From: Nematocida ausubeli
Taxonomy: Eukaryota
DNA: 64,000 nucleotides
NCBI RefSeq assembly: GCF_000738915.1
Contig: NW_026515634.1
Location: 723,156 to 787,155 of the forward strand
Direction: 5' to 3'
The first letter of the stretch is position 1. The number at the start of each line of letters is the position of its first letter. Positions 13,078 through 57,562 of the stretch are shown piece after piece. The notes beneath the pieces were generated by a model, which saw only the letters and a list, made by a program, of their open reading frames with translations, searched no databases and was not told the DNA's origin. The position numbers and the translations under genes are program-made.

Positions 13078-13199
13078 AAATAAATAAAAGCAGAAAATAA
13101 ATGAATAATAACCCAAATTAAGCCAGAATATACTAGAAGAGACAAGAGAGTGGAAATATTGTGGGTTTATGGGAATTTGGGATATTTCGAGTTATATGA

Positions 13200-13495
13200 G
13201 CTGAAATATGACTGAAATTACTTAAATTATGCTTAAAACTTCTTAAATTATACTTAAATTATACCATATACTACTTAAAATACGCTTAAAACTACTTAAA
13301 ATCCATCCAAAATCAGTTAAAACTACTTAAATTATACCATATACTACTTGAAATTACTTAAAATATACCATATACTAATTAAAATCACTTTAAACTACTT
13401 AAATTATACCATATACTAATTAAAACCATTTAAAATCACTTAAACTATGACTAAACTATGACTAAAACCACTTAAAATATACCATATACTAAGTA
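13200..13495. repeat. 10-11 bp periodic AT-rich repeat (TACTTAAA.. / TACCATATAC)
   Basis: TTAAA starts at 13222, 13233, 13243, 13254, 13275, 13286, 13296, 13317, 13327 and onward. Confidence 0.85.
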
Positions 13496-14186: not shown

Positions 14187-14264
14187 TAGAGTTCTAAGGG
14201 GGGAGTATTGTAAAGAGAATTATTTCTAGAGGGAAAAGTTATTTATCTGTAAAGATACACAAAA

Positions 14265-14575
14265 CGTATAAAAATCAGTTAGTTTTATCTGTAAAACACA
14301 GGCAAAATCCGTTATCTCTAGTCATAAAACATAGGTAAAATCAATTATTCCTAACCATAAAATATATAAAAAACCCGTTATTTCTAACCATAAAACACAG
14401 GTAAAACCCGTTATTTCTCTCTAAAATATATAAAACCCGTTATCTCTAACCATGAAATATATAAAACCCGTTAGTTTTAGTCATAAAACACATATAAAAC
14501 CCGTTACTTCTAACCACAAAATATATAAAACCGTTACTTCTCTCTAACTACAAAATATACAAACTCGTTATTTAT
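14265..14575. repeat. Minisatellite of ~29-34 bp units with an AAAACCCGTTA core
   Basis: Core copies near 14309, 14342, 14375, 14408, 14437, 14468, 14501, 14531 and 14565. Confidence 0.85.
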
Positions 14576-17990: not shown

Positions 17991-18972
17991 TGGGCTTACT
18001 ATTAATTATAAGAGCAATTAAATTAGTCAAGAAATACTTATTATCTACAGATTTTCTGCTATATTTTATCTTGCCTGAAGACACTTGGATATTCTGCCTG
18101 CAGATCTGCAATTAAAGAGGGATATGTATCTGGGGGAGTGCCAGGCATATGCTGATTTATACGGGTAGAGACACCAGGAGAAAAAAGATTGAAATAGTAT
18201 TGCAGATGGCATATCTAGAAAAAAACATGTCCCTGTGATATTTTGATAAAATTTATCAGATATACGCATAAATATCTAAAAAATGCAAACCTACCGTGGA
18301 AAATCAGAGATCCATCGAAAATGAGTAACCACCTTAAAATATCTTTATTTACTGTCTAGATGCATTATACTGTGCAGTTTGCAAGTATATTTATAAATAT
18401 ATAGGTATTATCCCATTGTATGCGATAAATATATGGTCTTTCTTCTTTCTATGTCATTTTCAGTGGAAATATGGGCTTCTGTGAGTCATTACCTCATGTA
18501 GACCCAGAATAACCAAATACCCTACCCAACTGTCTCAATATACCCCTATATAGTATCTAAAACATCACCTATTTATACAAGTTTTTTACAAATTTCAACT
18601 ACTCCTGCTTTCTTTGCTATCTTCAGATAAATTGCTTGAAGTATTTTCATATTATTCCTATTAGCTCTGGCTCTTTTAACATACTCATAATTGGTTTCTT
18701 CATCTTTCCTTGGTGTTTTATCTTAGAGCATGTGTGACCCAGACAACCCCAGACATGTAAATAACGACTAAAAATAGTATTATAAAGCATCTTAGCTTCA
18801 CCGCATCCTCACGAGACGCCATTATATGCAGATTATTCAATGTATTACTTATAAATAGTCTAATTATCAAGTAGATCATAGCGAATTAATTGAATTCAAC
18901 TTATAGTGAGATATATCGTGTGATATCGTGTGATATAGGGATATAACCGTATGCAGATGGCGTTGGGATGAA

Positions 18973-19200
18973 GTGTATTATATTTTGTCGGTTTAGGATA
19001 ATGTGGATTAAGTCCTGGCATTTTTATAAAAAGTGTATTAAGTCTTGTCACTCTTCCATAAGTCTTGACAAAGTGGCATAAGTTCTGTCATTTTTATAAA
19101 AAGTGCATTAAGTCTTGTCACTCTTCCATAAGTCCTGACAAAGTGTATTAAGTCTTGTCACTCTGCCATAAGTCTTGGCAAAGTGCATTAAGTCTTGTTT
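18973..19200 (+). repeat. Phased array of the GTG(G/T/C)ATTAAGTCTTGTCA motif
   Basis: About 10 copies at 18973, 19003, 19033, 19053, 19073, 19103, 19123, 19143, 19163 and 19183 (20 or 30 bp spacing). Confidence 0.9.
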
Positions 19201-20367: not shown

Positions 20368-20541
20368 GTTTTGTGGTTGTTTTGTGTTTTATGGTTGATT
20401 TTTGGTTGTTATTGAGGGTTTCAGGTAATATATTTTGACAGCATATTACCATACTAGGAAATAAGATTCCATATTAGGAAATTCCACATTAGGAAATAAT
20501 ACGTTATATTTTATTTTTATTCATTAATAATACGTTATAAT

Positions 20542-20780
20542 TAGTCTATACATATATACTTATTATTTATCACTTGCTTAGTATATTTTATATACAGGAT
20601 AGTCTACATTATATACGTGATATACATATTAGTATATTTTATATACAGGATAGTCTACATTATATACAGGATATATTGCTTAGTCTACATTATATACGTG
20701 ATATACATATTAGTCAGGTTTATATACAGGATAGTCTACATTATATACAGCATGCACTCCCTTAGTCTATTTTATATACA
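20542..20780 (+). repeat. Phased array of the TAGTCTACATTATATAC motif
   Basis: Copies at 20579, 20600, 20630, 20651, 20681, 20711, 20732 and 20763. Confidence 0.9.
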
Positions 20781-20784
20781 CAAA

Positions 20785-20915
20785 TATATCTCTCCAATGG
20801 TCCCCCCTTGTATCCTCTATATTCCCAATACCTCCAATGGTCCCCCCTTACATCCCTCTCATAAATATAATATAAGGGGGTACCCTTACAGACCCTCTTT
20901 TTCCCGTATATATTT
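20785..20915 (-). repeat. Left arm of an inverted repeat (partner at 24015-24195)
   Basis: Its reverse complement TATATACGGGAAAAAGAGGGTCTGTAAGGGT..CCCCTT..ATTATATTTATGAGAGGGATGTAAGGG matches from 24020 onward. Confidence 0.9.
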
Positions 20916-20920
20916 ACTAT

Positions 20921-21220
20921 TTATTTATAATTTTCTTCTATAAAACTATTATAATATTCATCATATGATGTGATTGTAATATGTTTATCATCTGTATCTG
21001 GCTGTATATTTATATTTATATCTGTCTTATTTTGTCTTAATCTCTTATCTTTTGCTCTTTTATTTTGGAACCATATTTGGACTGTTCTAATTGGAATATT
21101 AAAGTCCTTTGAGATTTCCTTACGCAGGATATTATTTGGCTTTTGGTTTTGTTCGTATACGGCGGACAGGAATTTAGTTTGCGTTGTAGTTAGTCTGGGT
21201 CTTTTTATTTTTTTGTCCAT
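20921..21220 (-). CDS. Small homeodomain protein (Q50)
   Basis: KRPRLTTTQTKFL...KPNNILRKEIS...VQIWFQNKRAKDKR. Confidence 0.93.
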   Translation of the reverse strand: MDKKIKRPRLTTTQTKFLSAVYEQNQKPNNILRKEISKDFNIPIRTVQIWFQNKRAKDKRLRQNKTDININIQPDTDDKHITITSYDEYYNSFIEENYK

Positions 21221-21354: not shown

Positions 21355-22045
21355 TAGGATTATAGCATGGTACAGGACTTAATCCACTTTGTCAGGACTT
21401 ATGGCAGAGTGACAAGACTTAATCCACTCTATCCTAAACTTGACAAGACTTAATCCACTTATAAACTCACCAAGACTTATTACATATACACCATAAGTTA
21501 TGTCATATATTACACTATTTAATCCACTAGCACCATAAGTCCTGCATAACCCCACTAACTACACCATAAACACATTACTTATTCCACTATGTCCATAAGT
21601 CCTGCACATGTTTTAATTATTTATTACACCCATGGAATAAGTCTTGTCTGTGCATTACTTACGGCCTCAGTGGAATAAGTAATAGTAAAATTGTCAGAAT
21701 ATATGGACAAAGTGTAATATATCCTGCAATATATGACTAATTACAATACAATTCCATTATTTATTACACCATGTCCATAATTCTTGTCAATTTCACCATT
21801 AATTATTCCACTAGTATCATAAGTTGTGGATTTGTGTTGTAATTAGTCAGGAAATCCACAATATATTACACCCACTCCATAATTCTTGTCAATTTCATCA
21901 TTACTTATTCCACTAGTATCATAAGTCCTGCAATATAAGACTAACTCTAACACAAATTCACAATATATTACACTATATCCATATATCCTGCAATATAAGA
22001 CTAATTACAACACAAATCCACAATATATTACACTATACATAATAT
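21355..22045. repeat. Array of the same ACAAGACTTAATCCAC motif family in mixed orientation, with higher-order repeats
   Basis: ACTT cores at 21377, 21397, 21417 and 21448; ACTTA-N-TAAGT dyads; internal duplications with 102 bp and 60 bp offsets. Confidence 0.85.
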
Positions 22046-22099: not shown

Positions 22100-22420
22100 T
22101 TATCTTGTTGATCCAAAGCCAATTAGTGTCACCCCCTGCTTCTTCAGTGAATACAATACATCTTGGCAGGAAACTGTCTTTCTCTTTCCGTGATTGCAAT
22201 ATGTCACTGCGCATCTGATGATTCCTTCAAGATACGTCTTAGCCATGTTGTTTATCTCACTGTATACTCCTGCACTAACTCTCTTTACTCCTCCTCTTCT
22301 GGCAAGGCGTCTGATTGCTGGCTTGGATATTCCCATTGTCTGTTGTGTTGTCTTTCTGTGTCTTTTTGCTGATCCTTTTCCTAATCCTTTTCCTCCCTTT
22401 CCTCTTCCTGCGACTGTCAT
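22100..22420 (-). CDS. H4: Histone H4
   Basis: [41 protein letters not shown]. Confidence 0.97.
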
Positions 22421-22440: not shown

Positions 22441-22505
22441 TATTTATAGTTTTATTTGGCGGGAAAAAAGGGCGGGAACGGGAATGGGCGGGGGTTATCC
22501 CGCCG
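22441..22505 (-). promoter_or_regulatory. H4 promoter: CTATAAATA box plus clustered TTCCCGCC (E2F-like) motifs
   Basis: TATTTATAG at 22441-22449; GGCGGGAAA at 22458-22466; GGCGGGAA at 22471-22478. Confidence 0.65.
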
Positions 22506-22556
22506 GAAATTGCAAGAATTATGAGTTTATAGGGGAATATGGGGTTATTATAGGGA

Positions 22557-23470
22557 GTGGATTAAGTTTTGTCAGGTTTTGAGAAAGTGGAATAAGTCTT
22601 GGCATGTTTATAAAAAGTGGAAAAAGTCTTATTAGTGTGGAATAAATTATGGCAATGTGGAAAAAGTCTTGTAGGAGTGGAATAAGTCCTGGCAGGTTTG
22701 GGGAGAGAAGGAAAAAGTTCTGCCATATTTATAAAAAATGGAATAAGTCTTGTTTAGTGTGAAATAAGTTGTGACAAAGTGGAATAAGTTGTGTAATATG
22801 TGCCATAAGTCTTGTTAGTGCGGAATAAATTGTGACATTTATTAGAAGGTGTGGAAAAAGTCTTGGTGGTTTAGGGGAGAGTAGGAAAAGTCCTGTCATT
22901 TTTAGGATGATGTGGAAAAAGTCTTGTTTACCCCATAATAAAGTGGATTAAGTCTTGTTTGCCTCATAATAAAGTGGAATAAGTCTTACACTCTATGTAA
23001 TAAGTTCTGACAAAGTGGATTAAGTCCTGTTCACCTCACAATAAAGTGGATTAAGTTCTATCATATTTAGAATAAGGTGGATTAAATTATGTCATATTTA
23101 GGATAAGGTGTAAAAAGTCCTGTCATTTTCTCAATAAGGTGGAATAAGTCCTGTCACATTAATTTGCATTACTTATTCCGCAGGTATAAAAAGTCATGTC
23201 CATTCTATCATTATTTATTCCGCAGGTATAAAAAGTCCTACCCATATTATATATATATTTACAACACAATCCCTTTCATTACTTTTTCCATCTACTCCAA
23301 AAGTCCCGCCATAATTTACAAGACTTAATCCACTCATACCATAAGTCTTGTCACAAATAAATAACAAATTATACCACAATCCCCTCCATTACTTATTCCA
23401 CTCACACCAAAAGTCCTGTCAATATCACCATTACTTAATCGACCCTACCAAAAGTCCTGCACCAAGACAC
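22557..23470. repeat. Phased GTGGA(T/A)(T/A)AAGTC(T/C)TG array filling the H4-H3 intergenic region
   Basis: 23 direct copies from 22557 to 23139 at 20/21/30/31 bp spacing, then inverted and dyad copies up to ~23470. Confidence 0.95.
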
Positions 23471-23526: not shown

Positions 23527-23578
23527 TTTCCCGCCTTTTTCCCCCCGCCCATTTCCCCCGCCTTTTTGCCTATAAATA
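23527..23578 (+). promoter_or_regulatory. H3 promoter: TTTCCCGCC (E2F-like) motifs plus CTATAAATA box
   Basis: TTTCCCGCC at 23527-23535, CCCGCC variants between 23541 and 23562, CTATAAATA at 23570-23578. Confidence 0.65.
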
Positions 23579-23597: not shown

Positions 23598-23993
23598 ATG
23601 GCAAGAACCAAGCAGACAGCAAGAAAGAGCACAGGAGGAAAAGCACCAAGAAAGCAATTAGCCACAAAGGCAGCAAAGAAAAGCACAGTAGCCACAAAAA
23701 GACCACACAGATTCAAGGCAGGCACAGTGGCCCTAAGGGAAATAAGAAAGTACCAAAAGACAACGGATTTATTAATCAGAAAATTACCATTCCAGAGACT
23801 AGTCAGGGAAGTAGCCTCAGAGTTTAAGGCGGAGGTTCGATTCCAGTCATCTTCAATTCTTGCAATCCAGGAAAGTCTGGAGAATTATCTCACAGGATTA
23901 TTTGAAGACAGCAACAGATGCGCAATTCATGCGAAGAGAGTCACATTAATGGCACGGGACTTGCATTTGGTGCACAAGATAAAATCAATATAA
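23598..23993 (+). CDS. H3: Histone H3
   Basis: [53 protein letters not shown]. Confidence 0.97.
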
Positions 23994-24014
23994 TAAAATG
24001 TTTAAATTTAATTA

Positions 24015-24195
24015 GTAATTATATACGGGAAAAAGAGGGTCTGTAAGGGTGTCCCCTTGGATTATATTTATGAGAGGGATGTAAGGGTACCCCCTTAGAA
24101 GTGTTTATTATTTTAGTGGATGCAAGGGGGGAGTATTGGATTATATATTTATAAGAGGGATGTAAGGGAGGAGTATTGGAGGTATTGAGAAATGG
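24015..24195 (+). repeat. Right arm of an inverted repeat (partner at 20785-20915), built of GGATGTAAGGG subunits
   Basis: Direct sequence match to the reverse complement of the left arm. Confidence 0.9.
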
Positions 24196-24225
24196 ACGGA
24201 GTTTATGATAAATTAGTAGGAAATG

Positions 24226-24395
24226 ACAAGACTTAATCCACTTTGACAGAACTTATTACGCGAGGTGCAAGACTTAATCCACCTTATCCCAAAAATGACA
24301 GAACTTAATCCACTTTGACAAAACTTAATCCACTCTATCCTAAAACCAACAAGACTTAATCCACCTTATCCTAAAACCTACAAGACTTAATCCGC
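24226..24395 (-). repeat. Phased ACAAGACTTAATCCAC array (reverse orientation of the H4-H3 motif)
   Basis: ACTT cores at 24231, 24251, 24272, 24303, 24323, 24354 and 24385. Confidence 0.92.
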
Positions 24396-24800
24396 AAACT
24401 AATATATTCAATCTATCCTAAAGTACCCACAATAAGTACACGCAAGAAACAGACAATCTCCCTAAATACCCATTCACACTATAAATACCACAAAACACCC
24501 AAATATATATATATGCGTTTCCTACTGTGTGGAAGATGAAAAAATTTAAAGACCATCAGATTGAAGGGGTAGAGTGGATGTGGGAGAGAGTTAGGAATCG
24601 GAAGGGCGTTGTATTGAGTGATGAAATGGGGACAGGGAAGACCCTTCAGTCTTTGGAGATAATTCAGAGAGTCTGGAACTCCATTGGAAAGTCAGTTCTT
24701 ATTGTCGCACCGTGCACCCTCCTGCACAACTGGGAGAAGGAAATGGAGAAGTTTCAGTTTCCAATTCCTGCCCGAATTGTTAGATCTAGTGACACGAATG

Positions 24801-24900: not shown

Positions 24901-24931
24901 ATATATATATGCGTTTCCTACTGTGTGGAAG

Positions 24932-26425
24932 ATGAAAAAATTTAAAGACCATCAGATTGAAGGGGTAGAGTGGATGTGGGAGAGAGTTAGGAATCGGAAG
25001 GGCGTTGTATTGAGTGATGAAATGGGGACAGGGAAGACCCTTCAGTCTTTGGAGATAATTCAGAGAGTCTGGAACTCCATTGGAAAGTCAGTTCTTATTG
25101 TCGCACCGTGCACCCTCCTGCACAACTGGGAGAAGGAAATGGAGAAGTTTCAGTTTCCAATTCCTGCCCGAATTGTTAGATCTAGTGACACGAATGGGGT
25201 GCAATTAGTTAATGCAGCAGACGGAGAATATATTCTAATAGTGAATTATGAGCTGCTTCAGAAGAAGAAGAGTGTATTCCTGCAGACATTCTTTGATTTG
25301 GTTGTATTTGATGAAGCACAAAGGATAAAGAACCATACGACATGGGTCTCCAGGATATCCAGAACTATTGATGCAATGTGCAAGATATGCGTCACAGGTA
25401 CGCCTATACAGAATAGTCTGTCAGAACTATGGAGCATAGCAGAGACTGTGAGACCTGGGTACTTTGGGGACTATACCACGTTCAAGGCTGAAATAGAAGA
25501 CCCCTTGAAGAAGAGCACACTGAAGCACGCGACTGAATTGGAGAAAAGGAAAGGGGCTTCAATTAAGAAGCACATTAATGAGCTTATTGCGGATGTAGTA
25601 ATAAGAAGAACGAAGAAGGAAATATTCAATGAGGAGTTTAAGAAAAGGGAAGGACTATTTGTCCCAAAGAGAAAGGAGTATGTGATATACTGCGGATTCA
25701 CAGAGGAGCAGGAGGCTGTATATAATGACGTGCTGAATATGGACCTAGTTAAGAGCACTGTTCTTGGCAGGAAATCTCCTTTGAAGAGCATATCACACCT
25801 GAAGAGCGTATGCAGCCATCCATCGCTTGTGGATAAAAGAGTAACCAGCTGGCATGCAAGTGGAAAGATGAAAGTGGTCCATAGATTGCTGTTTATGTGG
25901 AGGTCTTCAAATAGAAAGATCATTCTGTTTAGTCAGTACAAGAACACGCTTAAGATTCTTGAAAGATTCATAGACACGCATGTATATAGGATTGACGGGG
26001 ACAGTCCAATAGGCAAGAGAGAAGAAATATTTAAAATATTTGGAAGTAAAGACGGGATGGAGGTGCTTTTAATGAGCATGAAGGTGGGGGGCGTTGGAGT
26101 GAATTTGCAGAAGAGTGATACTGTGATTCTATTTGACATTGACTGGAACCCATTTAATGAGGAGCAAGCTAAAGGAAGGGCACACAGAATAGGACAGGAG
26201 AAAGAAGTGGAAGTGTACAGATTACTGTGCAAAGGCACAATTGAAGAGACCATACAGATGATACAAGATGTGAAAAGAACTATTTCGAAGGGGGTTCTGG
26301 ACGGGATAAGCTCGAAGAAAGTCTTTGATAAGGTGGATCTGTGCAAACTATTCCATTACTCACACGACCCAACTGATGTTACAGATATAGATAATCTTGT
26401 CCCAACGGAAGAGACTGACCTATAG
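24932..26425 (+). CDS. SNF2-family ATPase/helicase (Rad26/ERCC6-like), ~497 aa
   Basis: LSDEMGTGKT, DEAQRIKN, TGTPIQNSLSELWS, SGKM, GGVGVNL, DWNP, QAKGRAHRIGQ. Confidence 0.93.
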   Translation: MKKFKDHQIEGVEWMWERVRNRKGVVLSDEMGTGKTLQSLEIIQRVWNSIGKSVLIVAPCTLLHNWEKEMEKFQFPIPARIVRSSDTNGVQLVNAADGEYILIVNYELLQKKKSVFLQTFFDLVVFDEAQRIKNHTTWVSRISRTIDAMCKICVTGTPIQNSLSELWSIAETVRPGYFGDYTTFKAEIEDPLKKSTLKHATELEKRKGASIKKHINELIADVVIRRTKKEIFNEEFKKREGLFVPKRKEYVIYCGFTEEQEAVYNDVLNMDLVKSTVLGRKSPLKSISHLKSVCSHPSLVDKRVTSWHASGKMKVVHRLLFMWRSSNRKIILFSQYKNTLKILERFIDTHVYRIDGDSPIGKREEIFKIFGSKDGMEVLLMSMKVGGVGVNLQKSDTVILFDIDWNPFNEEQAKGRAHRIGQEKEVEVYRLLCKGTIEETIQMIQDVKRTISKGVLDGISSKKVFDKVDLCKLFHYSHDPTDVTDIDNLVPTEETDL

Positions 26426-28818: not shown

Positions 28819-31668
28819 CTAAAAAAAAGACTTAATCCATGCAATACAAGATCTCACAATTCCTCTTACCCATTGGTATAAACTCTTTTTTATAACAATT
28901 GTTCCTGGGCACCGTCTTCCAAGTTGTTCTAATACTTTGTTGTATTTTTCTACACTCTGTTCACTGCCTTCTGAGCACAGCATAGTCTTATTTCTCTCTA
29001 AAACTAGAATAGTATTTATGAAGTATGGGATATGGTCTGATAGATTAGGATCATGTGGGGTAGTCAATTCTTCTGTTTTTATAAGGTTGTAAATAAGAAC
29101 AATGGCATTTAGGCTAGGGTTTGGCCCCATACATGCATTAATAAGCCAGCCCACGTAGATATAGTTGAGGCTTTCTTCTGGCGCCTTGGTTTTCTCAAGT
29201 ATAGATCGAAGCTTTGCAAATTGAGCTATTTTCCCTTGTGCCACTATAACATTAAATATGCTTCTGTTCTGCTGTTTGCTTCCCAGTAAAGAATACATAG
29301 CATTTCTACGTATGGGCTGATTGAGATAGTTTTCTATACATTTTACTGCAAATCCTATTGATTTCTTTTTTAGTATACATCCATACATAGAATCTATATT
29401 AGGCCTATAAGAATTTTGCACTAATATATTGTTGAATAATAAATAGCTAAGCTGTGGATAATGTGTCTGGCAACTTGAAAGGAAGAGAAGAGGGGACAGC
29501 ATACGGCCCCGTATATACTCTTTATCAAGTGGAGCACTTCCCAGAACGTTTGCAACAAAGCGTGTTGCAGGATTGGTTGGGCTCAATTCGTTTTCTATCA
29601 AGTGGAGTATAAATTGTTCTATAATATGGATCTTACACTCTTTGTTAGCAATCTTTCCTATTAAGAATAATTTAGATACATTTTCGTATCCAGTACTTAA
29701 AATAGCGTCTGTTCTCTCTATAGGATAACGCCAGCTATACCGCTGCGCCATAAAAGATGTATCTTCTATTTCCAAGTCAATGTACCGATTAACAGTATAC
29801 ATAATGTAGCTGCATGTGTCTGTATACATCCTTCTTACTTCTTCATACTGGTTTGTATTGCTAGAGTCTATGCCTGAACCCTCAATAAAATTAAAAGTAG
29901 CATAGTCTCTTTTTAGTTGTAATATAAAAGTGCTATTTTTATAGTTATGCGTAGAAACAATATGAATTCCACCAAGAATATCGGCGCTTTCATCTGGTCT
30001 GTGGCCCAGTTTCATGCCCCAATCCATTACTAATATGCCTAATTTAGGAGATGCTAAAGACCTAAAAACTTCCTGCATCTTAGATGCAATATCATGTATT
30101 TTGCTGATGTCTAGATTGTTTTCTCTACATCTTTCTTCTATATACTCAACTAGATCCACTATGTCTGTGCCAGTCTTCTGCCCGGTTATTTCTGCTATGA
30201 CAAGCAAAATATTTGCAAGACCAGACTCAAGCTGGTTTCTGTTGTGTCTGTACTGGATTTTCTTGTTGTCCAGGCAAGAAACGACCTTACTCCACTCCAT
30301 GTGCATTTCTAAGGTAATAGTGTCAGTTGGCTTAGGATACTTTTTAAAGAAGGCAGTTACTGCTGGGCTTACTTCTTCTCCCATGTGGCTGGTTTCGTAC
30401 TCTTTTTTCTCTGGGTTGTATGCCAAGCAGCAGAACAGCCCAAGAAGAGCTGTTTCTGTGTGGTTTATGTAGTCTAAAGTGCGGTCCTCCTCAAAGCCAG
30501 ATAGATCCTGCTTGTACTGCGGTACTTTGACAGCTATTGGAAGCGTGCTTTCCTTCCAGAAGGAAAAGGCTGCTTCTTCAGTTTTGTTCTTTACCAGATC
30601 ACAGAAAGACGTAATATATTTCATGCTTGCACTGGCAGACTCTTCGCGGAGGAACAGTTTATGGAATATTTGACTCTTCTTATTGCTACTTGCATTTCCT
30701 GTGTTATATTGGTCTATGGCAGCCTGCTGCTCTTCCTTAGCACCGCTCTGGCCAATGAGAAGCTCGCTCTTCTCCTCTTCTGTCATTTGGTCAAGAAGCA
30801 GCTCATGCACTGCCTCCACAAAACTTGCATACTCCGCAAAGCTGTCAATGAAGTGATATATGTACGTCTGCATGAGGAACTCTAAGCTGTTCAAAAAGTC
30901 TCCCGTGTCAAATGCCTCCTGGCTGGACGGCATTACAAATGCGGGTGCTTTTCTAATTACTATTCTGTCTTTGCACCGTACACAGAAGTTGACAATCTCT
31001 TCCACTTCACTTTGGTAAATGCTGTCGATGCGCAGATTTGTAGCAGGGTCAATGCCTGCAGTGTACAGCTCTACATCTGCAAACTTTTTTCCCTTGCATG
31101 TCTTGCTCTTTATGACAAGTCTCTTTTTCTCCCCTGAGTGGTCCACGCCTATTTGGACGTCAATCTCTTCTGAAAGAAGCAGCAGCGCTGCAAGAATGTA
31201 CTTGGCATCCTGCTTAACATGGTCTGCCCTTAAGAAGTTTGTAAGTGCATTTGGCCGGGTAGTCTCAATTGAGAGGTCTCCATGCTCGGATGGAAACATC
31301 TTTAAGAGCTGTGCATGGTACGCGCTGAGATATCTTCCATCAGAGCCACTAACACCCAGCTCTTTGTATATCTTATCATTTGCAGGCGTTCTTGTAAATC
31401 CGTACTTTTGTGTGCTGTTAACTGCCGATCCATTTTCATATAACGCATAGTCTGTTTCTATTTCAGGAGAAAAAACCGCTTGTTGTACATGTATCCGTTT
31501 TGGAAGCCCATATATCCGCAATAGCAGATTCAGAGGGCCCTCTGGGTTAATGAATAGCCGTTGGCTGCCTTTTATCTTAGTTTCATGCGCTCTTCTTATA
31601 TCTTCCACAGAAACTCTTGCAAAGAGATTCTGCACCATAAACAAACTAGCAATCACCCTGTAGATCAT
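28819..31668 (-). CDS. Secreted-type large-gene-family protein (Nematocida-type), 949 aa
   Basis: Signal-peptide-like N-terminus; family blocks FSPEIE, LLKMFPS, KYILAALLLLSE, FLMQTYIYHFI, ETALLGLFCCLAY. Confidence 0.88.
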   Translation of the reverse strand: MIYRVIASLFMVQNLFARVSVEDIRRAHETKIKGSQRLFINPEGPLNLLLRIYGLPKRIHVQQAVFSPEIETDYALYENGSAVNSTQKYGFTRTPANDKIYKELGVSGSDGRYLSAYHAQLLKMFPSEHGDLSIETTRPNALTNFLRADHVKQDAKYILAALLLLSEEIDVQIGVDHSGEKKRLVIKSKTCKGKKFADVELYTAGIDPATNLRIDSIYQSEVEEIVNFCVRCKDRIVIRKAPAFVMPSSQEAFDTGDFLNSLEFLMQTYIYHFIDSFAEYASFVEAVHELLLDQMTEEEKSELLIGQSGAKEEQQAAIDQYNTGNASSNKKSQIFHKLFLREESASASMKYITSFCDLVKNKTEEAAFSFWKESTLPIAVKVPQYKQDLSGFEEDRTLDYINHTETALLGLFCCLAYNPEKKEYETSHMGEEVSPAVTAFFKKYPKPTDTITLEMHMEWSKVVSCLDNKKIQYRHNRNQLESGLANILLVIAEITGQKTGTDIVDLVEYIEERCRENNLDISKIHDIASKMQEVFRSLASPKLGILVMDWGMKLGHRPDESADILGGIHIVSTHNYKNSTFILQLKRDYATFNFIEGSGIDSSNTNQYEEVRRMYTDTCSYIMYTVNRYIDLEIEDTSFMAQRYSWRYPIERTDAILSTGYENVSKLFLIGKIANKECKIHIIEQFILHLIENELSPTNPATRFVANVLGSAPLDKEYIRGRMLSPLLFLSSCQTHYPQLSYLLFNNILVQNSYRPNIDSMYGCILKKKSIGFAVKCIENYLNQPIRRNAMYSLLGSKQQNRSIFNVIVAQGKIAQFAKLRSILEKTKAPEESLNYIYVGWLINACMGPNPSLNAIVLIYNLIKTEELTTPHDPNLSDHIPYFINTILVLERNKTMLCSEGSEQSVEKYNKVLEQLGRRCPGTIVIKKSLYQWVRGIVRSCIAWIKSFF

Positions 31669-33110: not shown

Positions 33111-36100
33111 ATGTTTAGTATAATGAAGTCTAATCTTTCGAAGAGAAAGAACCAGCTATTAGAGAATAAAGAAGTAGAAACAGAAGACTTAAGAACACAC
33201 AAGATAAGACAAGAGAAAAAGGAAAGAGCTATCTGCAGAGCAAAGATATACATGCTCATTGGAGTAGCTATATTGTGCCATGTGTGGGACAAAGTATTGA
33301 CAGTGGACAGGCTAAGAAATTTCCAGATAAAAGCTGCTGCTATTTCTGAAGAAACAAAAGAAGGCAGCCAAGGTGGAGAGAAATTCACAGTAGAAGAAAT
33401 AGCTAGAAATATTGGATTTATGAGTAGGAAGAGGTTTTTGTCACCCGAGATACAGCTAGACCACTCTATAGAAGTTCTCAAAAAAGACTCTGAAAATATA
33501 GAGGCGTGCAATGAAGATAACTCGGATAAGCACATTCCAAGTGATTCTATTATCTACAAACATACACGAAAATTCAACCAGGACAGATTACGTAATAACC
33601 CTCTATATGAAGATGGTCTACTCAAGTACAATAATGGATATTTTAACATGCTTCTTGAGCTGTTTCCCTCGCTAGGTGGATTTGCGTCAATATGTTCAGA
33701 AGATGTTTGTTCTTTTTATGAATTTATTAACAGAGCTTCTGTAGAAAAGAATAAGCACAAAATACTTGCCTCGCTGCTGCTTCTTGCAGAAGGAGTGAAT
33801 GTGCCACTGGAAGTTAATAAAGGTGAAAGAACTGATCTGGTTCTTAAGAAGGCAGATGGAAAGGAAGAGCACTTCAGAATTAATATGACTTTTATGGCTA
33901 ACAAGAATAAATATAAGAAAAAACCCACAGGCGTGCATGAAAAGGTATTGCAGGAAAAGGCAATTAATGTTATAAACTTCTTTATAGAAAGCAGAGAAAA
34001 TCCAGTTTACAAAAAAGAGGAGCCCACTCTACAGTCACTTTTCTGTAGAAAGCTTGTGGATAACAAGTTTTTAAACAGCCCTAGCTTCCTTATACAAGCT
34101 TATATATATCACTACATAGAGAAGACTGAGGAGATGGTTTTATTCATTCAAACAGTGCATGATCTACTAAATGAGTTTATAGATAAGAAAGAAGGAGTTT
34201 CAAGAGAAGTGCGCATAGAAGAGGCTGTGAATAATCTTCTAAGTTTGTATATGGAGGAGATATGTGTCAAACCAGAAGATAAAAAGCCTAATAACAAAGC
34301 TGCAGTGCAAAAAAAGAGTGTGTGTGCCGAATGCAATATACCAAAGAAATATATTTCAATTGGAAGAAGAAGAATAGATATAACTCATCTGGCAAAAAGA
34401 TCTCTGTACAATGATTTCAGAAACCAAGTGTTTCATAAGCTATGTCTCGAACCACTTGAGGATCCTGCTTCTAAAAAAGAGAATATGGATAGCAGTATGG
34501 GCCAGACTAACTATTGTGAGACAGCACTGTTTGGCCTATTCTGCTCAGCTGCATATAGACAAAATGAGAATATATATACAGTTCACGATGTAAAGTCTGC
34601 CTCTAAGGAGCTAAGAGGCTTTTTCAGAAAGTACATGATCGCCCCCACAGACAGGGCAATCATAAAGAGAATGCACCAAGACTGGGTAGATGATGTAGTG
34701 TTTGGAGAAAATAACCAGGGAACACAATATATGTGGATAGATGGAAAAACACTTATGCCAGGATTGATAAATATACTGTATGGATTTTCAAAGATAGCAG
34801 GTATATGTGACTTAAGTAAGATAAATGAGATTAGAAGAAGGGTGGATGATATGAACATTAATGGTTCCGTAGATGACTCTAATAAAATAGAGAAAGAAAA
34901 GAAGGAAGGACTTGAGAGTATAATAAGCGCATATATGACTGAGCTAATTAAGAAAATTGCGTTAGGTTATGATGTTAGTGTTCAGACATCCATTAACTCT
35001 AAAATGTCTTTTAAAGATGGTTGCAGTGATGTATTTGGGGGCCTAAAAATATCTTATACTCCCATTAATGAACAGGACAGGGATGATTTCCAAACTTATT
35101 CATATTGTTATGAATTTAATATATGTCCTGATTGTTCTAATGATGGTAAAGAACTGGCATGGACAACCAATTTTAATGCTTTTCACTTACAAGAAATATC
35201 AAAAAAGCTAAAATTAAAGAAAAAGAAGAAAGAGAAGAAGAAAGAGAAAAAGCAAGAGAAGAAGGTAGAGAAAAAGAAGGAATTGTCTATTATAGAGAAA
35301 GTTGAATTATATGTAGGTGAAGAAATACAGTTAAGTAGAAAAAAGGCAGAAGAATGTAAGAAAAACTCTAAGTTGAATAAACAAGAGCAGCCCAAGCATA
35401 GCTATGCCGACTGGAGCGAGAGTATTAACACGCTTCTGCTTGATCCACAAATCTATTTGGGTAAGGATAGAAGAACAATTCTATGCGGGTTATTTCTATT
35501 CGCAAAAGGCCAAGATTTTGAAGAAATCCATCCTCTTGCATGTTTAGCAGAGAATATTATGAAAAATTCTTGCCATAATTTTAATACTACTAAAGGTGAA
35601 GTGCTTATAATGCATAGCTTGGAGATAGCAGACAAGTGCTATCCAAATACACCCATAGACATGGATGCATTTAAAGAACGCCCTAATTGTTTTATAACTG
35701 CATTAAAACATGTATTAATATTAGCAACTGATGCAAAATACATAAGCCATAAAAAATATGCTGATATAATCACAGACTTAATGATTAAATTCCGAGAAAC
35801 GTGCTTGGAAGATAGCTACTATTCAAGTTTGGAGTCATTTGCTAAAGAGCTGGATGAGGACAAAAGAATTTTACTTATAAAGATTTTGACACGGAATGGA
35901 CACAATATTAAGCATATTACTAAAATTGTTCAATCTATGCAGAAAATAGAGAAAGAACATTCAGTTGCCGATTATGAGAAGCATAGTAACCAGTTCCTGC
36001 TATGGTTTATTTGGGCCATAAAGGAAAGTAACCATAAGAGTTTTTTTACTAAACTAAAAAAATGCCAGGGATTAATTGACATAGCAGAGATAGAAAAAAT

Positions 36101-36179
36101 TAATAGTGAGACATTTTCTTCTAAATGGGGTATAGACATAAATATACCAGAACTGCTTAAAGAGATAAGATACACATGA
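33111..36179 (+). CDS. Large-gene-family protein (~1020 aa)
   Basis: KRFLSPEI, LLELFPSL, HKILASLLLLAEG, FLIQAYIYHYI, ETALFGLFCSAAY; hydrophobic segment near the N-terminus; first ATG at 33111. Confidence 0.88.
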   Translation: MFSIMKSNLSKRKNQLLENKEVETEDLRTHKIRQEKKERAICRAKIYMLIGVAILCHVWDKVLTVDRLRNFQIKAAAISEETKEGSQGGEKFTVEEIARNIGFMSRKRFLSPEIQLDHSIEVLKKDSENIEACNEDNSDKHIPSDSIIYKHTRKFNQDRLRNNPLYEDGLLKYNNGYFNMLLELFPSLGGFASICSEDVCSFYEFINRASVEKNKHKILASLLLLAEGVNVPLEVNKGERTDLVLKKADGKEEHFRINMTFMANKNKYKKKPTGVHEKVLQEKAINVINFFIESRENPVYKKEEPTLQSLFCRKLVDNKFLNSPSFLIQAYIYHYIEKTEEMVLFIQTVHDLLNEFIDKKEGVSREVRIEEAVNNLLSLYMEEICVKPEDKKPNNKAAVQKKSVCAECNIPKKYISIGRRRIDITHLAKRSLYNDFRNQVFHKLCLEPLEDPASKKENMDSSMGQTNYCETALFGLFCSAAYRQNENIYTVHDVKSASKELRGFFRKYMIAPTDRAIIKRMHQDWVDDVVFGENNQGTQYMWIDGKTLMPGLINILYGFSKIAGICDLSKINEIRRRVDDMNINGSVDDSNKIEKEKKEGLESIISAYMTELIKKIALGYDVSVQTSINSKMSFKDGCSDVFGGLKISYTPINEQDRDDFQTYSYCYEFNICPDCSNDGKELAWTTNFNAFHLQEISKKLKLKKKKKEKKKEKKQEKKVEKKKELSIIEKVELYVGEEIQLSRKKAEECKKNSKLNKQEQPKHSYADWSESINTLLLDPQIYLGKDRRTILCGLFLFAKGQDFEEIHPLACLAENIMKNSCHNFNTTKGEVLIMHSLEIADKCYPNTPIDMDAFKERPNCFITALKHVLILATDAKYISHKKYADIITDLMIKFRETCLEDSYYSSLESFAKELDEDKRILLIKILTRNGHNIKHITKIVQSMQKIEKEHSVADYEKHSNQFLLWFIWAIKESNHKSFFTKLKKCQGLIDIAEIEKINSETFSSKWGIDINIPELLKEIRYT

Positions 36180-36929: not shown

Positions 36930-39900
36930 ATGAAATTAGATATACAATTGAAGAGTAAAGAAGTAGGAACAGAAGACTTAAGAACTCACAAGATAAGACA
37001 AGAGGAGAAGGAAAGAGCTATCTACAGAGCAAAGATATACATGCTCATTGGAGTAGCTATACTGTGCCATGTGTGGGACAGAGTATTGACAGTAGATGAG
37101 CTAAGAAATGTCCAGATAAAAGCTGCTGCTATTTCTGAAGAAACAGAAGAAGTCGGCGTAGATAGTAGAATAATGCCAGTGCTAAAAGAAGAAGCCAGAA
37201 ACATTGGGTTTATGCACAGAAAGAGGTTTTTTTCGCCTGAGATAAAGCTAGACCACTCTATAACACATGATAAGTTTTACAATGAATCTACTGACTACAT
37301 AAATTCACGAGACTGCAGTCTGGACAAAGTACGTGATGATAATGAGCTTTTATATGAAGGTGGCTTGCTCAAGTACAAAAAAGAGTACTTTAATACGCTT
37401 CTTAACATGTTTCCCTCACTAGGTGAATGTGTGTCCATATTGTCAGACGATCTTGACTCTTTCTATACATTTATTAATAGTGCTAATGTAAAAGAGCATA
37501 AGTACAAAATACTTGCCTCATTGCTAATGCTTGCAGAGGGAAAGCGTGTACCACTCTCATTTAATAAAAGTTATAACAGAACAGAGCTCGTTCTGAGGAA
37601 GACAAATAGCGAAGAAGAGCACTTCAGACTCAACATGAATGTGTTGGTTAAAACTAGCAAAGAAGGAACAGAGTCTACAGATGTGTTTGAAGAGGTGCTG
37701 CAAGAAAAGGCAATTGAAGTTATAAACTTCTTTATAGAAAACAGAGAAAATAAGGTCTTTATAGAAGAGAAAGATAGCTCAGAGCCATCTGACTGTGATA
37801 TGCATGAGAAAGCTCAGTTTGTAAACAGCCCAGCCTTCCTTATACAAACCTATATACACTACTGCCTAGAAACTACCAAAGAGGCAGTTTTATTCATTCA
37901 CACAGCCTATTGCTTGCTAGGCGAATGGATGCTACAGAAAGAAGAATCCTTGAGAAAAGAGAAGATGGAAAACATTGCAAGATATCTAATAAGTAGATAT
38001 ATAGAGCAAGAAGGAGAGAGAAGAGCTGAGAGGGATAATGCTTTTTTCAAATCCATAGTGTCAGAAGAGAATCGCCCATTTGATATAGAGAAGATCGACA
38101 TAACTCATATGAAGAAAAAGCCTCTGCAAGATGATTATATTTGTTTGCTCGGAGATCTTTTATATGTAGGTGTAGCTTCAGATGTTGTTCCTGTCCCAAT
38201 GAAGACAAACAATTTGAGCTCTTCTTCTCCTGCGCTTGGAATAAATTCCCTAGATGACAAGCATATTCAAGAGGATGCTAAGCCCGCACTATCGTCTGGA
38301 TTTACTGACCCTGCAGAGACAGTGCTTCTAGCCATCCTAATGTCTATTGCATATGATGCTAAGAATAATATATACAGAGTTGACCACATAGAGTCTGCGT
38401 CTGAGGAGCTGAAAAGCTTTTTCAAGAAATATTCGAGCGTGCGTGAACGAGTAGGAAAGGAAATGCACAATGACTGGAACAAAGTAGTGGGGGGCCTGCC
38501 CAATCCAAAAATACGCTATATGCGACCAGACAGAAATCAGCTTGCGCTCGGCATGATCAATATGCTGTATGTTATTAAAGAGATAACAGGTTTCAGTGAT
38601 ACAAAGAATCTGAAGATAGATAGGCTTAGAGACTTGATGGATGCGATAAATAATGATGAGATTATTATTAGTAATTGCAATAAGGTTACAGATATGGATG
38701 AGTTTAGCGAAAAGGCGAATATTAAAATGGATCTCATAGACATGTTTAATAAAAAAATCCAGAGGATGCAAACATTTCTTAAAGAGAAGCAAAAAGTTCT
38801 TGAGAAGAAACAAATAGTGCTTAAGGAAAAAGAATTGTTTAAAGAGAAAAATCCAGAAATTGAAGAACGTTTAGCTATGGTGGAGGCAGAGATAGAGGAA
38901 TTGCAGAAGGAGAATGATCAAAGAAATCAAGGTTCTATCCTTGATTTTACAAGTGAGTACAGAACTAGATGTGAATCTAGAAAGAAATGCCTAGAAGATG
39001 ATGTATTTGAATATCTAAATGAAATTATTAAGAGATTTTCATTCAATAACAATATCAAGTTATGTCTATCTAAGCATAAATGGGTTACTAATGAAAAGTA
39101 CAGTGATCTTGAAGAAAGAATAGAAATCGAATATAAACTAAATGAGCATTTGGAAGACGAATATCACTATTCAGTTAGTATTTCGATTGGAATTGGCTCG
39201 GAACTGGGAAAAGATCATATCGAGTTAAATAAAACTAAGCAGGATATATACGAATCTACAGAATCGCCTATTATAGGGATGCTTAGTTCCTATACAGATA
39301 AAGGTATCAAGACAAGTGAACCCAAAGAAGAGAATAGGAACCCCTCTACACTGAATAAACATGTGGGTCCTACTTTTTTGTATGGAAAAGAGCACAGGGT
39401 TGTTGATATTCTCCTGCTTAATCCTCCAATCCATAATATGGATCACATAAACCAAAATGTATGGCTGCTGCTTCTATATGGAATGGAAAAAAAACTTGAC
39501 AAAAATCATCCTTTTTTACGCCTAGCAGATAACATCTTGGGCAGTGCTTGCTTTATGGATAGTGAGATTAGAAATACAATGTTTATATTTCTTAGTCACA
39601 TCCCAGTAGATAAGCATTATCCGCTAACAGGAATAGACAAGAGTATAGATGAAAAATATATTCCATCCACAATACGTGATGTATTATACTTAGCACAAAT
39701 TACAAAATTTGTATCGCAGACAACGTATGCCAATATACTAACTGACTTAATGATTAGTTTGCAAAGAAAATGTAGTAATGATAACTACAAATCCAATGAT
39801 CTTCCTGAAGACCAGGTTTCTATAATTCTATCCGAACCTTTGCTTATCGAGATTTTAACACTGAATGGAACCACTATGGACTATATTACTAAAATTATTC

Positions 39901-40223
39901 AATCTATGGAGGGAGTAGAAACTAAGTATACAGCTAGTGATTGTAAGAGATTTGGCAACCGGCCTTTGATGTGGATTATTTGCTCCGCACAAACATTTAA
40001 ATATACAAGATGGTCTAATATAGCACAAGAATGCTATAACTTAATTGATATAGAAATCGCCACCGATGATGGTGCCTATATGTATTATTGTAGTGACAAG
40101 TGGACTGGAAAGATAAAAAATGTGCTTAAAGAGATAGAAGACCTAGTGTGTGTTAAGAAAGATAGGGAGAGTATGGAAAGGTTTTCAAAAATTCGACGTT
40201 ATTTTCCATATGCTTTTTGGTAA
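36930..40223 (+). CDS. Large-gene-family protein (1097 aa), tandem paralog
   Basis: Same family blocks; N-terminus nearly identical to the upstream paralog; coiled-coil insertion. Confidence 0.9.
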   Translation: MKLDIQLKSKEVGTEDLRTHKIRQEEKERAIYRAKIYMLIGVAILCHVWDRVLTVDELRNVQIKAAAISEETEEVGVDSRIMPVLKEEARNIGFMHRKRFFSPEIKLDHSITHDKFYNESTDYINSRDCSLDKVRDDNELLYEGGLLKYKKEYFNTLLNMFPSLGECVSILSDDLDSFYTFINSANVKEHKYKILASLLMLAEGKRVPLSFNKSYNRTELVLRKTNSEEEHFRLNMNVLVKTSKEGTESTDVFEEVLQEKAIEVINFFIENRENKVFIEEKDSSEPSDCDMHEKAQFVNSPAFLIQTYIHYCLETTKEAVLFIHTAYCLLGEWMLQKEESLRKEKMENIARYLISRYIEQEGERRAERDNAFFKSIVSEENRPFDIEKIDITHMKKKPLQDDYICLLGDLLYVGVASDVVPVPMKTNNLSSSSPALGINSLDDKHIQEDAKPALSSGFTDPAETVLLAILMSIAYDAKNNIYRVDHIESASEELKSFFKKYSSVRERVGKEMHNDWNKVVGGLPNPKIRYMRPDRNQLALGMINMLYVIKEITGFSDTKNLKIDRLRDLMDAINNDEIIISNCNKVTDMDEFSEKANIKMDLIDMFNKKIQRMQTFLKEKQKVLEKKQIVLKEKELFKEKNPEIEERLAMVEAEIEELQKENDQRNQGSILDFTSEYRTRCESRKKCLEDDVFEYLNEIIKRFSFNNNIKLCLSKHKWVTNEKYSDLEERIEIEYKLNEHLEDEYHYSVSISIGIGSELGKDHIELNKTKQDIYESTESPIIGMLSSYTDKGIKTSEPKEENRNPSTLNKHVGPTFLYGKEHRVVDILLLNPPIHNMDHINQNVWLLLLYGMEKKLDKNHPFLRLADNILGSACFMDSEIRNTMFIFLSHIPVDKHYPLTGIDKSIDEKYIPSTIRDVLYLAQITKFVSQTTYANILTDLMISLQRKCSNDNYKSNDLPEDQVSIILSEPLLIEILTLNGTTMDYITKIIQSMEGVETKYTASDCKRFGNRPLMWIICSAQTFKYTRWSNIAQECYNLIDIEIATDDGAYMYYCSDKWTGKIKNVLKEIEDLVCVKKDRESMERFSKIRRYFPYAFW

Positions 40224-55864: not shown

Positions 55865-57562
55865 TCACTCTGCAGAATCTTTTTTCAGGTTATAATGCCT
55901 TTTTTTTGATATCTTTCCACTATTTTCTCGCACTAAATATGATCCATCTCTGCACTCTTCCAGTATTATTCCTTCTGATATACATCCTACTGCATACTTA
56001 TTTCCTTGCATTTCTGAGCCCCCATCCTCAAATATTCCCACTTTTTCGCCTTTTTTAAATTCTTCCAGTTTGCTCTTTTTAAATTGTTCTGTGCACGCGT
56101 TCTCTTTGATGTCAATTTCATCAAACTCTTCAGAGCTATTCATCCATGCTGTATTTGGAGAGCAGTTTGCCACACTGTAGAATCTGCTGTTGTATCTTTC
56201 TTCGATTATTTTCAGTGCGTCTTCCAGGCTTTCACTTTCTTTCATTTCTGCCCATAATTCTCTTATTATTCTGGCTGCTCTGAGCATTCTTAGATTCTTG
56301 CTGTACAGTTCCTTCAAGCCTATCTTTCTGTGTAATATCCCACTTCTTGCAAAATATCTTTGGGTTTCTTCTTCCACTAGTTCTGTCATGCAAGGAGATA
56401 TTATTTCTTCAGGTTTTCCTCTTCTTTTTATCCACTCTTCAACGACTTTTTTTATATCCCGCACATTCATTTTTTCAACTGCCCTAGCCTGCATCACTCT
56501 TGTGTAGTGGTCTACCATCACTATAATAGATTTATTTTCCTTTGCTTCATCAAGTACGCACAGTATCACCTTCTCCAATTTTCTTTTGGTCACCACATAC
56601 TCAGTGACACTCTTTGGTCCACTACTATTCTCCGAGCACTTTTCGCAATTATTTACAGCCTGCACTGCATCACCCCATATGCCCTTCCAGCACTTTCCCA
56701 TATCCATTATGATGCACTTCTTTATTTGCTCTGCTGTTGCATGCATTTTCTCCAAATGCACTCTTTCCACTAACTCTTTTCTTTCAACCCACTCAGGCAC
56801 TTCTCTTTTTAATCCATCCTTGCATATAGTGTACTTTTTATCCTTCTCTCCATCCACTGTCTTATTTGGAATTTCATTTATCTCTTCTTTAGTCTTCGCA
56901 GGGTAGTGAATATTTCTATCTCCTGTGCTCAGGCTTCTGCTTCCCCTTCTATACCAGCAGGCTACTGTCTTGTGGCCTTTCTTTCCACAAGTGTAGCACT
57001 CCATGTCCATTTTATTCTGGTCATCCATCTCGTCCAATATTCTTCCTATTCTTTCTTTAGATAATCTCTCTTGCTCCTTTTTCTTTGAATTTTCAAATAG
57101 TTCATTCCTTCTTTCTCTTGTCTCTTCGTTATTTTTCTTTTCTTCTTCTTTTTCCTTTTGCATCTTTCTCTCTTGTAATTCACTATCTTTCTGTGCTTTC
57201 TTTTCTTCTGCATCCTGTTTCTCTCTTGTTTCAATTACTTTCATCTCTATCATGTACCGGATGAGTCTGTCTATGCCATCCAGCTGCACTCCCTTTATTC
57301 CTAGTTCTTCCTTCAAAAGTCCTTTGTACGCCTGCCATTGCTTCTCATTTCTGAATTCTTGATCATTTATTAGCTCTCTCTTTAATTTTTTGCTTTTCTC
57401 TCCCCAGGTGGTTTCCAGAACTGCAAGCTCCATCCATCTGCTCCATCTCTTATTTATGCTTTGCTTTTCTTCCGCTTCTACTCTTGCCATTAAATTATTA
57501 AACCTAGTCTCTTCTACACTATTATACTGGGTGTCATATAGACTGTTGTTACTTAAATGCAT
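55865..57562 (-). CDS. LTR-retrotransposon-derived Gag zinc-knuckle/integrase-like fusion protein
   Basis: CYTCGKKGHKTVAC (CX2CX4HX4C); integrase HHCC domain (VHLEKMH...CEKC); rve-like IIVMVDHYTR, GKPEEIIS, GILHR, YNSRFYS...SP; C-terminal GEKV...Y.V. No protease, RT or RNase H. Confidence 0.8.
   Translation of the reverse strand: MHLSNNSLYDTQYNSVEETRFNNLMARVEAEEKQSINKRWSRWMELAVLETTWGEKSKKLKRELINDQEFRNEKQWQAYKGLLKEELGIKGVQLDGIDRLIRYMIEMKVIETREKQDAEEKKAQKDSELQERKMQKEKEEEKKNNEETRERRNELFENSKKKEQERLSKERIGRILDEMDDQNKMDMECYTCGKKGHKTVACWYRRGSRSLSTGDRNIHYPAKTKEEINEIPNKTVDGEKDKKYTICKDGLKREVPEWVERKELVERVHLEKMHATAEQIKKCIIMDMGKCWKGIWGDAVQAVNNCEKCSENSSGPKSVTEYVVTKRKLEKVILCVLDEAKENKSIIVMVDHYTRVMQARAVEKMNVRDIKKVVEEWIKRRGKPEEIISPCMTELVEEETQRYFARSGILHRKIGLKELYSKNLRMLRAARIIRELWAEMKESESLEDALKIIEERYNSRFYSVANCSPNTAWMNSSEEFDEIDIKENACTEQFKKSKLEEFKKGEKVGIFEDGGSEMQGNKYAVGCISEGIILEECRDGSYLVRENSGKISKKRHYNLKKDSAE

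Follow-up and report, generated by a model that had tools for sequence, protein, structure and literature searches.

A helix-phased motif array between the divergent histone H4 and H3 genes of a Nematocida microsporidian belongs to a dispersed array family that may dock a protein

Drosophila foldback (FB) elements carry 10- and 20-bp repeats in addition to their 31-bp repeats. As described (PMC7642927, PMC4079207), FB elements share with the arrays reported here a modular composition of short repeats, 31-bp units, mirrored blocks, and variable copy number; unlike FB elements, however, the arrays show no shared termini, target-site duplication, or transposase, and the genes they enclose are syntenic in a relative. 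The PATCs of C. elegans (bioRxiv 10.64898/2026.08.08.743475) are, like these arrays, reported to be non-coding, minisatellite-derived, and matched to the helical repeat, with ongoing turnover between strains as seen here and with a proposed role in chromatin. While PATCs are An/Tn clusters that are described in that report as not being short protein motifs, the arrays repeat a defined motif of 15 bp, some bases of which never vary, every two to three helical turns and have only marginal AA/TT periodicity. In addition, PATCs are reported to derive from Helitron minisatellites, whereas no link to Helitrons was seen in the arrays, and Helitron is absent from the list of Nematocida transposable elements in Table 1 of PMC4202319. 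The 10-bp Prod satellite of Drosophila and the phased CentO satellite of rice (PMC8122249) resemble the arrays in a unit length matched to the helical turn, rapid species-specific turnover, and dyad symmetry, but differ from them in that the array blocks are 100–600 bp long, lie between genes, and contain heterogeneous units. Microdeletions and ectopic insertions that arise from SPO11 double cuts (PMC13532658) present the same ~21 and ~30 bp classes and 10-bp periodicity; they are reported there, however, from mouse mutants, each as one mutational event, and not as arrays of a conserved motif. The divergent H3-H4 pair that flanks the array described here is the usual arrangement in fungi and Encephalitozoon (PMC10158259). 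No description of this repeat was found in the part of the literature that was covered, and the phased array family of Nematocida is apparently undescribed; the five candidate N. parisii promoter motifs in Fig. S4 of PMC3514677 lie outside this comparison and may bear on its novelty.

The window analyzed here is a eukaryotic, gene-dense stretch of 64 kb. Its histone H3 gene (23598–23993, + strand) encodes a protein of 131 aa that is 93–94% identical to the H3 proteins named for Nematocida displodere, N. minor, and N. parisii and ~75% or less identical to non-microsporidian H3; the source of the DNA is therefore a Nematocida microsporidian. As compared to other Nematocida H3s, this protein lacks three to four tail residues before the K36-equivalent region and has three to four residues fewer at its C-terminus. 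The histone H4 gene (22100–22420, − strand) was read directly as H4 from its ORF, which presented histone-fold Pfam hits near or below the cut-off.

Between these two genes lies block F (22557–23160, + strand), which was found by motif scan and profile scan to contain 23 head-to-tail copies of a motif with the core WWAARTYNTR within GTGGAWWAAGTCYTG. The main claims of a first-pass annotation of this DNA were borne out for this block: the motif is present at all 23 starts with zero to four mismatches to the consensus (eight copies are exact, five have one mismatch, four have two, five have three, and one, at 22820, has four), every one of the 22 intervals is 20, 21, 30, or 31 bp (31 bp nine times, 20 bp six times, 30 bp four times, and 21 bp three times), and the ORFs place H4 and H3 divergently on its two sides. 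With up to two mismatches allowed, 42 matches were found in the window, as compared to 0.87 expected, and none of 100 shuffles contained as many; 38 of the 42 are located at 19.0–24.4 kb. A single contig of X1, a public run that is possibly the source of this DNA, covers 22480–23220 unbroken and with 0 differences; an assembly artefact was therefore rejected.

Block F spans 57 turns with a regression slope of 10.22 bp per turn, so that the annotated 10.2 bp per turn holds as an average of an uneven array, with 10.13 bp in the left half and 10.3 bp in the right half. A long-range helical register was rejected, as drift is without compensation (93% of 20,000 permutations of the interval order drift as little or less); constraint on the phase of this block, if any, would act between neighbors. 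The spacers, annotated as variable, do vary in sequence but cannot count as independent of one another, since the 14 long ones are mutually alike (mean alignment score of 6.76 vs. 4.35 ± 0.16 for shuffled sequence), fall into ~4 classes, and contain a two-copy 121-bp higher-order repeat, and because they are related by duplication, the 22 intervals do not represent 22 independent events. Two- and three-turn units are present in the block and one-turn units are not. WW dinucleotides have a period of 10.25 bp (power 7.63 vs. a shuffle maximum of 3.47), while AA/TT power at 10.25 bp is marginal (2.07 vs. a shuffle maximum of 2.16). Together with the mean turn of the arrays (10.2–10.3 bp), the WW period is compatible with, but not proof of, DNA lying on a nucleosome or another surface, as had been proposed from the nucleosomal value of 10.2 bp; no nucleosome-length unit or period was seen in the arrays. 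Self-similarity at lag 9 (z 4.1), present in blocks F, C, H, and D, and at lags 9–11 in block A, as well as AAGT echoes spaced 9 and 11 bp, point to a putative old ~10-bp subunit beneath the arrays; the annotation had set spacing by slippage of a 10-bp ancestral unit against its own interpretation, and the subunit fits this alternative in part. A structured non-coding RNA was rejected, with 0 hits in an Rfam search of 12–28 kb and a z of −1.67 for the RNA fold of the + strand of block F. A run guessed to be RNA (X13) presented 0 contigs on block F, which says nothing either way on expression.

The array is not confined to the annotated 22557–23160; five more blocks lie beside block F. A profile scan of the 64-kb window identified 72 copies on both strands, which form six blocks between 18,973 and 24,395, and no motif block outside this interval; this count omits one 7.0-bit hit inside H4 that is at the background level (10 hits ≥6 bits in 57 kb). 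Block C (18973–19200, + strand) contains 10 copies spaced 20 or 30 bp, block E1 (21370–21485, − strand) contains five copies spaced 20, 20, 31, and 27 bp, and block H (24224–24395, − strand), located between H3 and a SNF2-family gene, contains seven copies spaced 20, 21, or 31 bp. The other two blocks are mixed in orientation; block E2 (21488–22033) contains 16 copies and includes an imperfect palindrome at 21669–21914 (z of −7.7 for the single-strand DNA fold), and block G (23164–23462) contains 11 copies, mostly alternating, with head-to-head cores 19–20 bp apart. Four of the six blocks are in intergenic gaps other than the histone one. Over the whole field, 44 of the 46 same-strand intervals <70 bp are whole helical turns (20, 21, 30, 31, 42, or 60 bp), the remaining two (27 and 38 bp) being out of phase. 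Among inverted pairs, cores are 19–20 bp apart in 10 of the 11 head-to-head pairs (62 bp in the other), and tail-to-tail pairs are spaced 22 (×4), 40 (×4), 25, and 48 (×2) bp, with 3 of 11 off phase. Inversion between quasi-palindromic TGNCA words was rejected, as it would yield offsets of 13/27 bp and not the 20/22 bp observed.

Two separate arrays nearby follow a comparable length rule and are possibly distant relatives of the motif family. Block A (13195–13495, − strand) presents a TAAGT-like word every 10–11 bp (period 10.36), and block D (20540–20780, + strand) presents a TAGTC-like word spaced 21, 30, or 31 bp, with one gap of 37 bp. Block B (14262–14575), located between convergent BUD31 and gamma-glutamyltransferase-like genes, has units of 29–33 bp and was rejected as part of the 10.2-bp rule, being off grid and unrelated in sequence. 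In non-array noncoding DNA (17.6 kb), exact in-phase repeats are only marginally in excess (intergenic 7-mers outside arrays, ratio 0.45 vs. 0.449 for the best of 30 shuffles; 6-mers, 0.33 vs. 0.34).

The arrays differ between strains roughly three times more than the intergenic DNA around them. As compared to strain X9, 41 of 488 bases (8.4%) differ in block F and 43 of 467 bases (9.2%) differ in block E2, vs. 21 of 755 (2.8%) in neighboring non-array intergenic DNA (P ~1e-5 for F and 2e-6 for E2), although some of the aligned pieces behind these figures could be paralogues. Alleles of block F differ by +51, −31, and net −83 bp (i.e., five, three, and eight turns) in addition to single-base changes, and single-base indels are tolerated inside the block (30 to 29 or 31 bp, 20 to 21 bp). 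Beside the array, four of eight X9 pieces are without gaps and four have gaps in the same direction only (net 16–23 bp); single-base indels thus look rare there, and the spacing could therefore persist without selection.

Evidence for selection on the core comes from the 43 distinct copies in the four gap-free runs (C, F, H, and E1), in all of which columns A7, A8, T10, and T13 are invariant; columns 9 and 14 are purine-only and column 11 is pyrimidine-only, while flanking columns present three or four bases. The four invariant columns require 0 parsimony steps, as compared to a mean of 6.6 at columns with an A/T consensus, and four empty columns were obtained in 0 of 200,000 equal-rate draws, a contrast that unit conversion inflates. 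Neutral simulations of duplication, matched for mean conservation, produced four invariant columns in 0 of 64 runs when matched diversity was greatest (32 distinct copies vs. 43 observed) and in 3%, 10%, and 39% of matched runs at lower diversity. Of the 32 strain differences that lie inside block F among the best-supported 40 of 57 rows, some come from paralogue-derived rows and some form a cluster that may be a single unit replacement; 10 are within the 15-bp motif, which makes up 58% of the length (P 0.002), and 0 are in the invariant columns (P 0.005). The case for selection on the core is thus fair and the case for selection on the phase is weaker; of the conserved core at whole turns that the first-pass annotation had proposed, the invariant columns and the phased spacing elsewhere stand, but the drift, the related spacers, and the ~10-bp subunit speak against strong selection on phase.

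Contigs and reads of public runs, on which statements beyond the window rest, place the family at other loci as well. In X1, 22 contigs align to block F at ≥87% likeness, and summed contig depth on this block peaks at 327 and 397, as compared to 31.5 for single copy; a telomeric or high-copy satellite repeat was rejected on this depth, a rough measure that amounts to at most ~13 times single copy. One of ten probes from loose ends and junctions of X1 is exact in the window (block H), six are absent from it, and three have one-mismatch matches only, at unrelated places. Across 12 of 36 X1 junctions, which include block H and at least one allele of F, motif spacing was 20 (×4), 21 (×2), 30, 31, 32 (×2), 42, and 62 bp. 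The motif family occurs at further loci outside the window, where it is likewise phased, and loose ends at these loci are heterogeneous. The arrays are thus real, and larger and more dispersed than first reported.

In a related species (X21), raw reads from 26% of the run give 50–87 per direction over H4 and H3 and 0–0.15 over the array bins, and the arrays were undetected at 80% likeness, a level at which a diverged motif would be missed. A 19-kb contig from a related organism (X7) carries H4, H3, and the SNF2 gene together with the left-hand neighbor of the homeobox gene, with an H4-H3 gap of 579 unrelated letters, as compared to the 1,182 letters (1.2 kb) filled with phased repeats here. 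In another relative, 367 letters extend from the H4 start to the middle of H3, which would correspond to a gap of ~130–140 bp. These comparisons suggest that the array family is lineage-restricted, although those species may carry a phased array of another motif. Phasing that is not conserved in relatives had been named at the outset as an outcome that would tell against a selected array, and the lack of conservation of the motif itself goes part of the way to it. A metagenome scan with the C-terminal part of H3 (6 of 64 parts) returned 80 loci at 55–66% identity, none of them Nematocida-like; as a control, 0 motif hits ≥14 bits were found in 414,407 bp of those 80 loci.

We tentatively place block F in a lineage-specific family of protein-docking arrays that would present their sites on one face of the DNA, a reading to which we assign a probability of roughly 0.4 and which rests on core columns that are invariant beside varying ones, on neighbors two or three turns apart, and on gain and loss of whole units. 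A candidate sequence-specific DNA-binding protein would recognize the core WWAARTYNTR and bind cooperatively in rows along one side of the helix; its footprint would permit two or three turns between sites but not one. Units would spread and be renewed by unequal exchange and gene conversion, selection would spare the contacted bases and remove off-face neighbors, and the bound row may organize chromatin between genes by setting or excluding nucleosomes, an effect that would not be specific to histone genes. The 19–20-bp spacing of head-to-head cores, the whole-turn intervals, the invariance of the core, and the strain differences that avoid it count for docking; the related spacers, the tolerated single-base indels, and the out-of-phase spacings (27, 38, 25, and 48 (×2) bp) count against it. 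Because the motif was undetected in a related species, docking demands a quickly evolving binder; if this binder exists, the protein and its DNA sites would coevolve rapidly, in a parasite for which C. elegans can serve as the host for growth.

A homeodomain gene (20921–21220, − strand; PF00046, E 2.7e-15) is located inside the field and encodes a protein of the Q50/A54 type, as read from its ORF. The preference of Q50 homeodomains presumably does not fit the array core, and this neighboring protein was rejected as the binder, since TAAT occurs in a minority of copies only (T at column 5 in 19 of 43).

It is unlikely that the arrays are a neutral modular minisatellite, in which an old ~10-bp AAGT unit was doubled and tripled to 20/21 and 30/31 bp, units would be spread by slippage and gene conversion, and phase would simply be inherited. 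The lag-9 self-similarity and AAGT echoes described above, the related spacers and uncompensated drift of block F, the whole-unit strain changes in this block, the length rule shared by arrays A and D, the marginal in-phase excess of non-array 7-mers, and the absence of the arrays in a relative are consistent with such an origin. However, it leaves unexplained an invariance of single-base resolution beside the varying columns 11 and 12, as well as the 19–20-bp spacing across inverted pairs, and while the alleles of F do differ by whole units, the arrays have two length classes and mixed orientation in place of the one fixed head-to-tail unit of a minisatellite. If there is neither a binder nor a mutational process behind the arrays, they represent a species-specific minisatellite that would be useful for strain typing.

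Microsporidia have the most reduced genomes among eukaryotes, and a compact genome that devotes ~2 kb of a 5.4-kb stretch to a phased motif, part of it invariant, provides a specific candidate that can be mapped. The location of microsporidian centromeres and replication origins is described as open (PMC12449221, PMC10158259, PMC13174016), centromeres being reported as unlocated in the first two of these sources and only inferred in the third. The 5.4-kb field (11 kb with A, B, and D) could be a sequence-marked chromosome centromere, with one field per chromosome and arrays that would seed CENP-A chromatin or a kinetochore DNA-binder, but we regard this as quite doubtful. The single dense field in 64 kb, its rapid evolution (8.4–9.2% vs. 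2.8%) and species restriction, and the dyad symmetry of the E2 palindrome (z −7.7) fit a centromere. By rough arithmetic, the 22 X1 contigs would make ~seven fields at about three contigs per field, as here, which is close to the figures given for N. parisii, seven contigs or a chromosome number below eight (10.64898/2026.01.30.702766; PMC3514677) and was therefore counted for this reading; the same 22 contigs are, however, equally compatible with scattered single blocks. Ordinary genes, histones included, interleave the blocks in place of gene-poor DNA, GC in the blocks (30–40%) is not below that of the window (~35%), so that they are not AT-rich, and the H4-H3 gap of the second relative is apparently only ~130–140 bp. 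If the centromere reading is true, short rows of a species-specific site, each row on one helical face, would occupy the gaps between working genes; no sequence-marked centromere would have been located in microsporidia before this one, and its interleaving with genes would set it between the point and regional types.

Phased arrays may also be built by mutation alone, as scars of a break hotspot. Here, double cuts made in the same orientation by SPO11 or topoisomerase II would release fragments of two and three turns, which would then be lost, be duplicated, or enter other hotspots in one or the other orientation; we consider this improbable. The presence in F of two- and three-turn units but no one-turn unit agrees with SPO11-like lengths, and raised divergence, dispersal and inversion of blocks, and the adherence of unrelated nearby arrays to the same length rule would also follow. 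A hotspot motif is expected to erode, however, and not to persist. In mouse and yeast, double cuts are reported to have ~10-bp periodicity from ~three turns, with ~21-bp events and ectopic fragment insertion, but they are shown mainly in ATM or MRE11 mutants, and their products are predicted to be rare where end joining is weak (PMC13532658). Nematocida is reported to have 20 of 29 core meiotic genes (PMC3514677), but sexual recombination has reportedly not been seen under laboratory conditions (10.64898/2026.01.30.702766). Arrays built by mutation alone would be a record of a helix-phased mutational process.

Three of the functions initially proposed for the array, a histone-locus control region, a dedicated nucleosome platform, or a replication origin, are very unlikely. 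Blocks F and G are arranged mirror-wise upstream of H4 and H3 and are C-rich on the sense strand of each gene, the power of the WW period of 10.25 bp is above the shuffle maximum, and GC skew turns from negative to positive across H4, all of which would suit one of these roles. Orientation to the nearest promoter is inconsistent, however, being opposite at the homeobox gene, the arrays have no nucleosome-length period, and the skew flips several times within 5 kb. The same family is found at four non-histone intergenic sites in the field and elsewhere in the genome and was undetected at the H3-H4 pair of relatives; a histone-specific role is therefore unsupported. Control of the histone genes more likely rests on proximal GC boxes, four CCCGCC words upstream of H4 (22458–22504, − strand) and three upstream of H3 (23527–23562, + strand), such that 7 of the 11 CCCGCC words of the window are within ~85 bp of the start codons of these genes. 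We take the boxes of both promoters to be E2F-like by consensus. Microsporidia are reported to retain E2F and DP (PMC3514677).

The least credible source of the arrays is a decayed transposon of the foldback or Mutator-like kind, with modular inverted repeats that would bear transposase sites, as FB-type repeats are reported to be able to do (PMC4079207). Despite blocks mirrored like FB arms with their short-repeat blocks and 31-bp repeats (C+/E1− and F+/H−), no common termini were seen when the sequences flanking C, E1, F, and H were compared by eye, no target-site duplication was found, the enclosed genes are in the same order in a relative, a comparison of 18 distinct window proteins with Pfam found no DNA-transposon transposase, and the Nematocida families in Table 1 of PMC4202319 are LINE, LTR, Mariner, and piggyBac only.

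Several other elements were identified in the window. An inverted repeat of ~160 bp (80% identity) has its left arm (20782–20941) just 3′ of the homeobox gene and its right arm (23988–24150) just 3′ of H3; TATATACGGG, a word of this repeat, is also found after the H4 stop codon (three of its four window copies), and the repeat is possibly a shared 3′-end element. Positions 24505–24800 and 24901–25196 present 296 identical bases flanking a gap of 100 N; this identity is an overlap left by scaffolding, through which the SNF2-family ORF wrongly has its start twice. A stretch of ~1 kb (17991–18960) without a convincing ORF is 2–3% divergent between strains.

The ORF at 62502–62954 (+ strand, 150 aa) presented no Pfam hit; its nearest Atlas clusters are Rep endonuclease domains of CRESS-DNA viruses (feature score 0.95, TM 0.63), and it is likely an endogenous Rep-like gene without the helicase part. 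This rolling-circle Rep gene at 62.5 kb was rejected as a mobilizer of the arrays, with no motif nearby. The ORF at 55865–57562 (− strand), which contains a zinc-knuckle-like stretch and a weak integrase-core hit (PF00665, below the cut-off), appears to be derived from an LTR retroelement. An 842-aa gene at 46749–49277 (− strand) encodes a reverse-transcriptase domain (PF00078) and, from its size and the absence of retroelement domains, likely encodes telomerase; the only tRNA of the window is at 49.3 kb. Four large ORFs (700–1,100 aa; 1–2148, 28819–31668, 33111–36179, and 36930–40223) probably belong to a Nematocida large gene family, and three of the four are mutual paralogues with 66–73% DNA identity.
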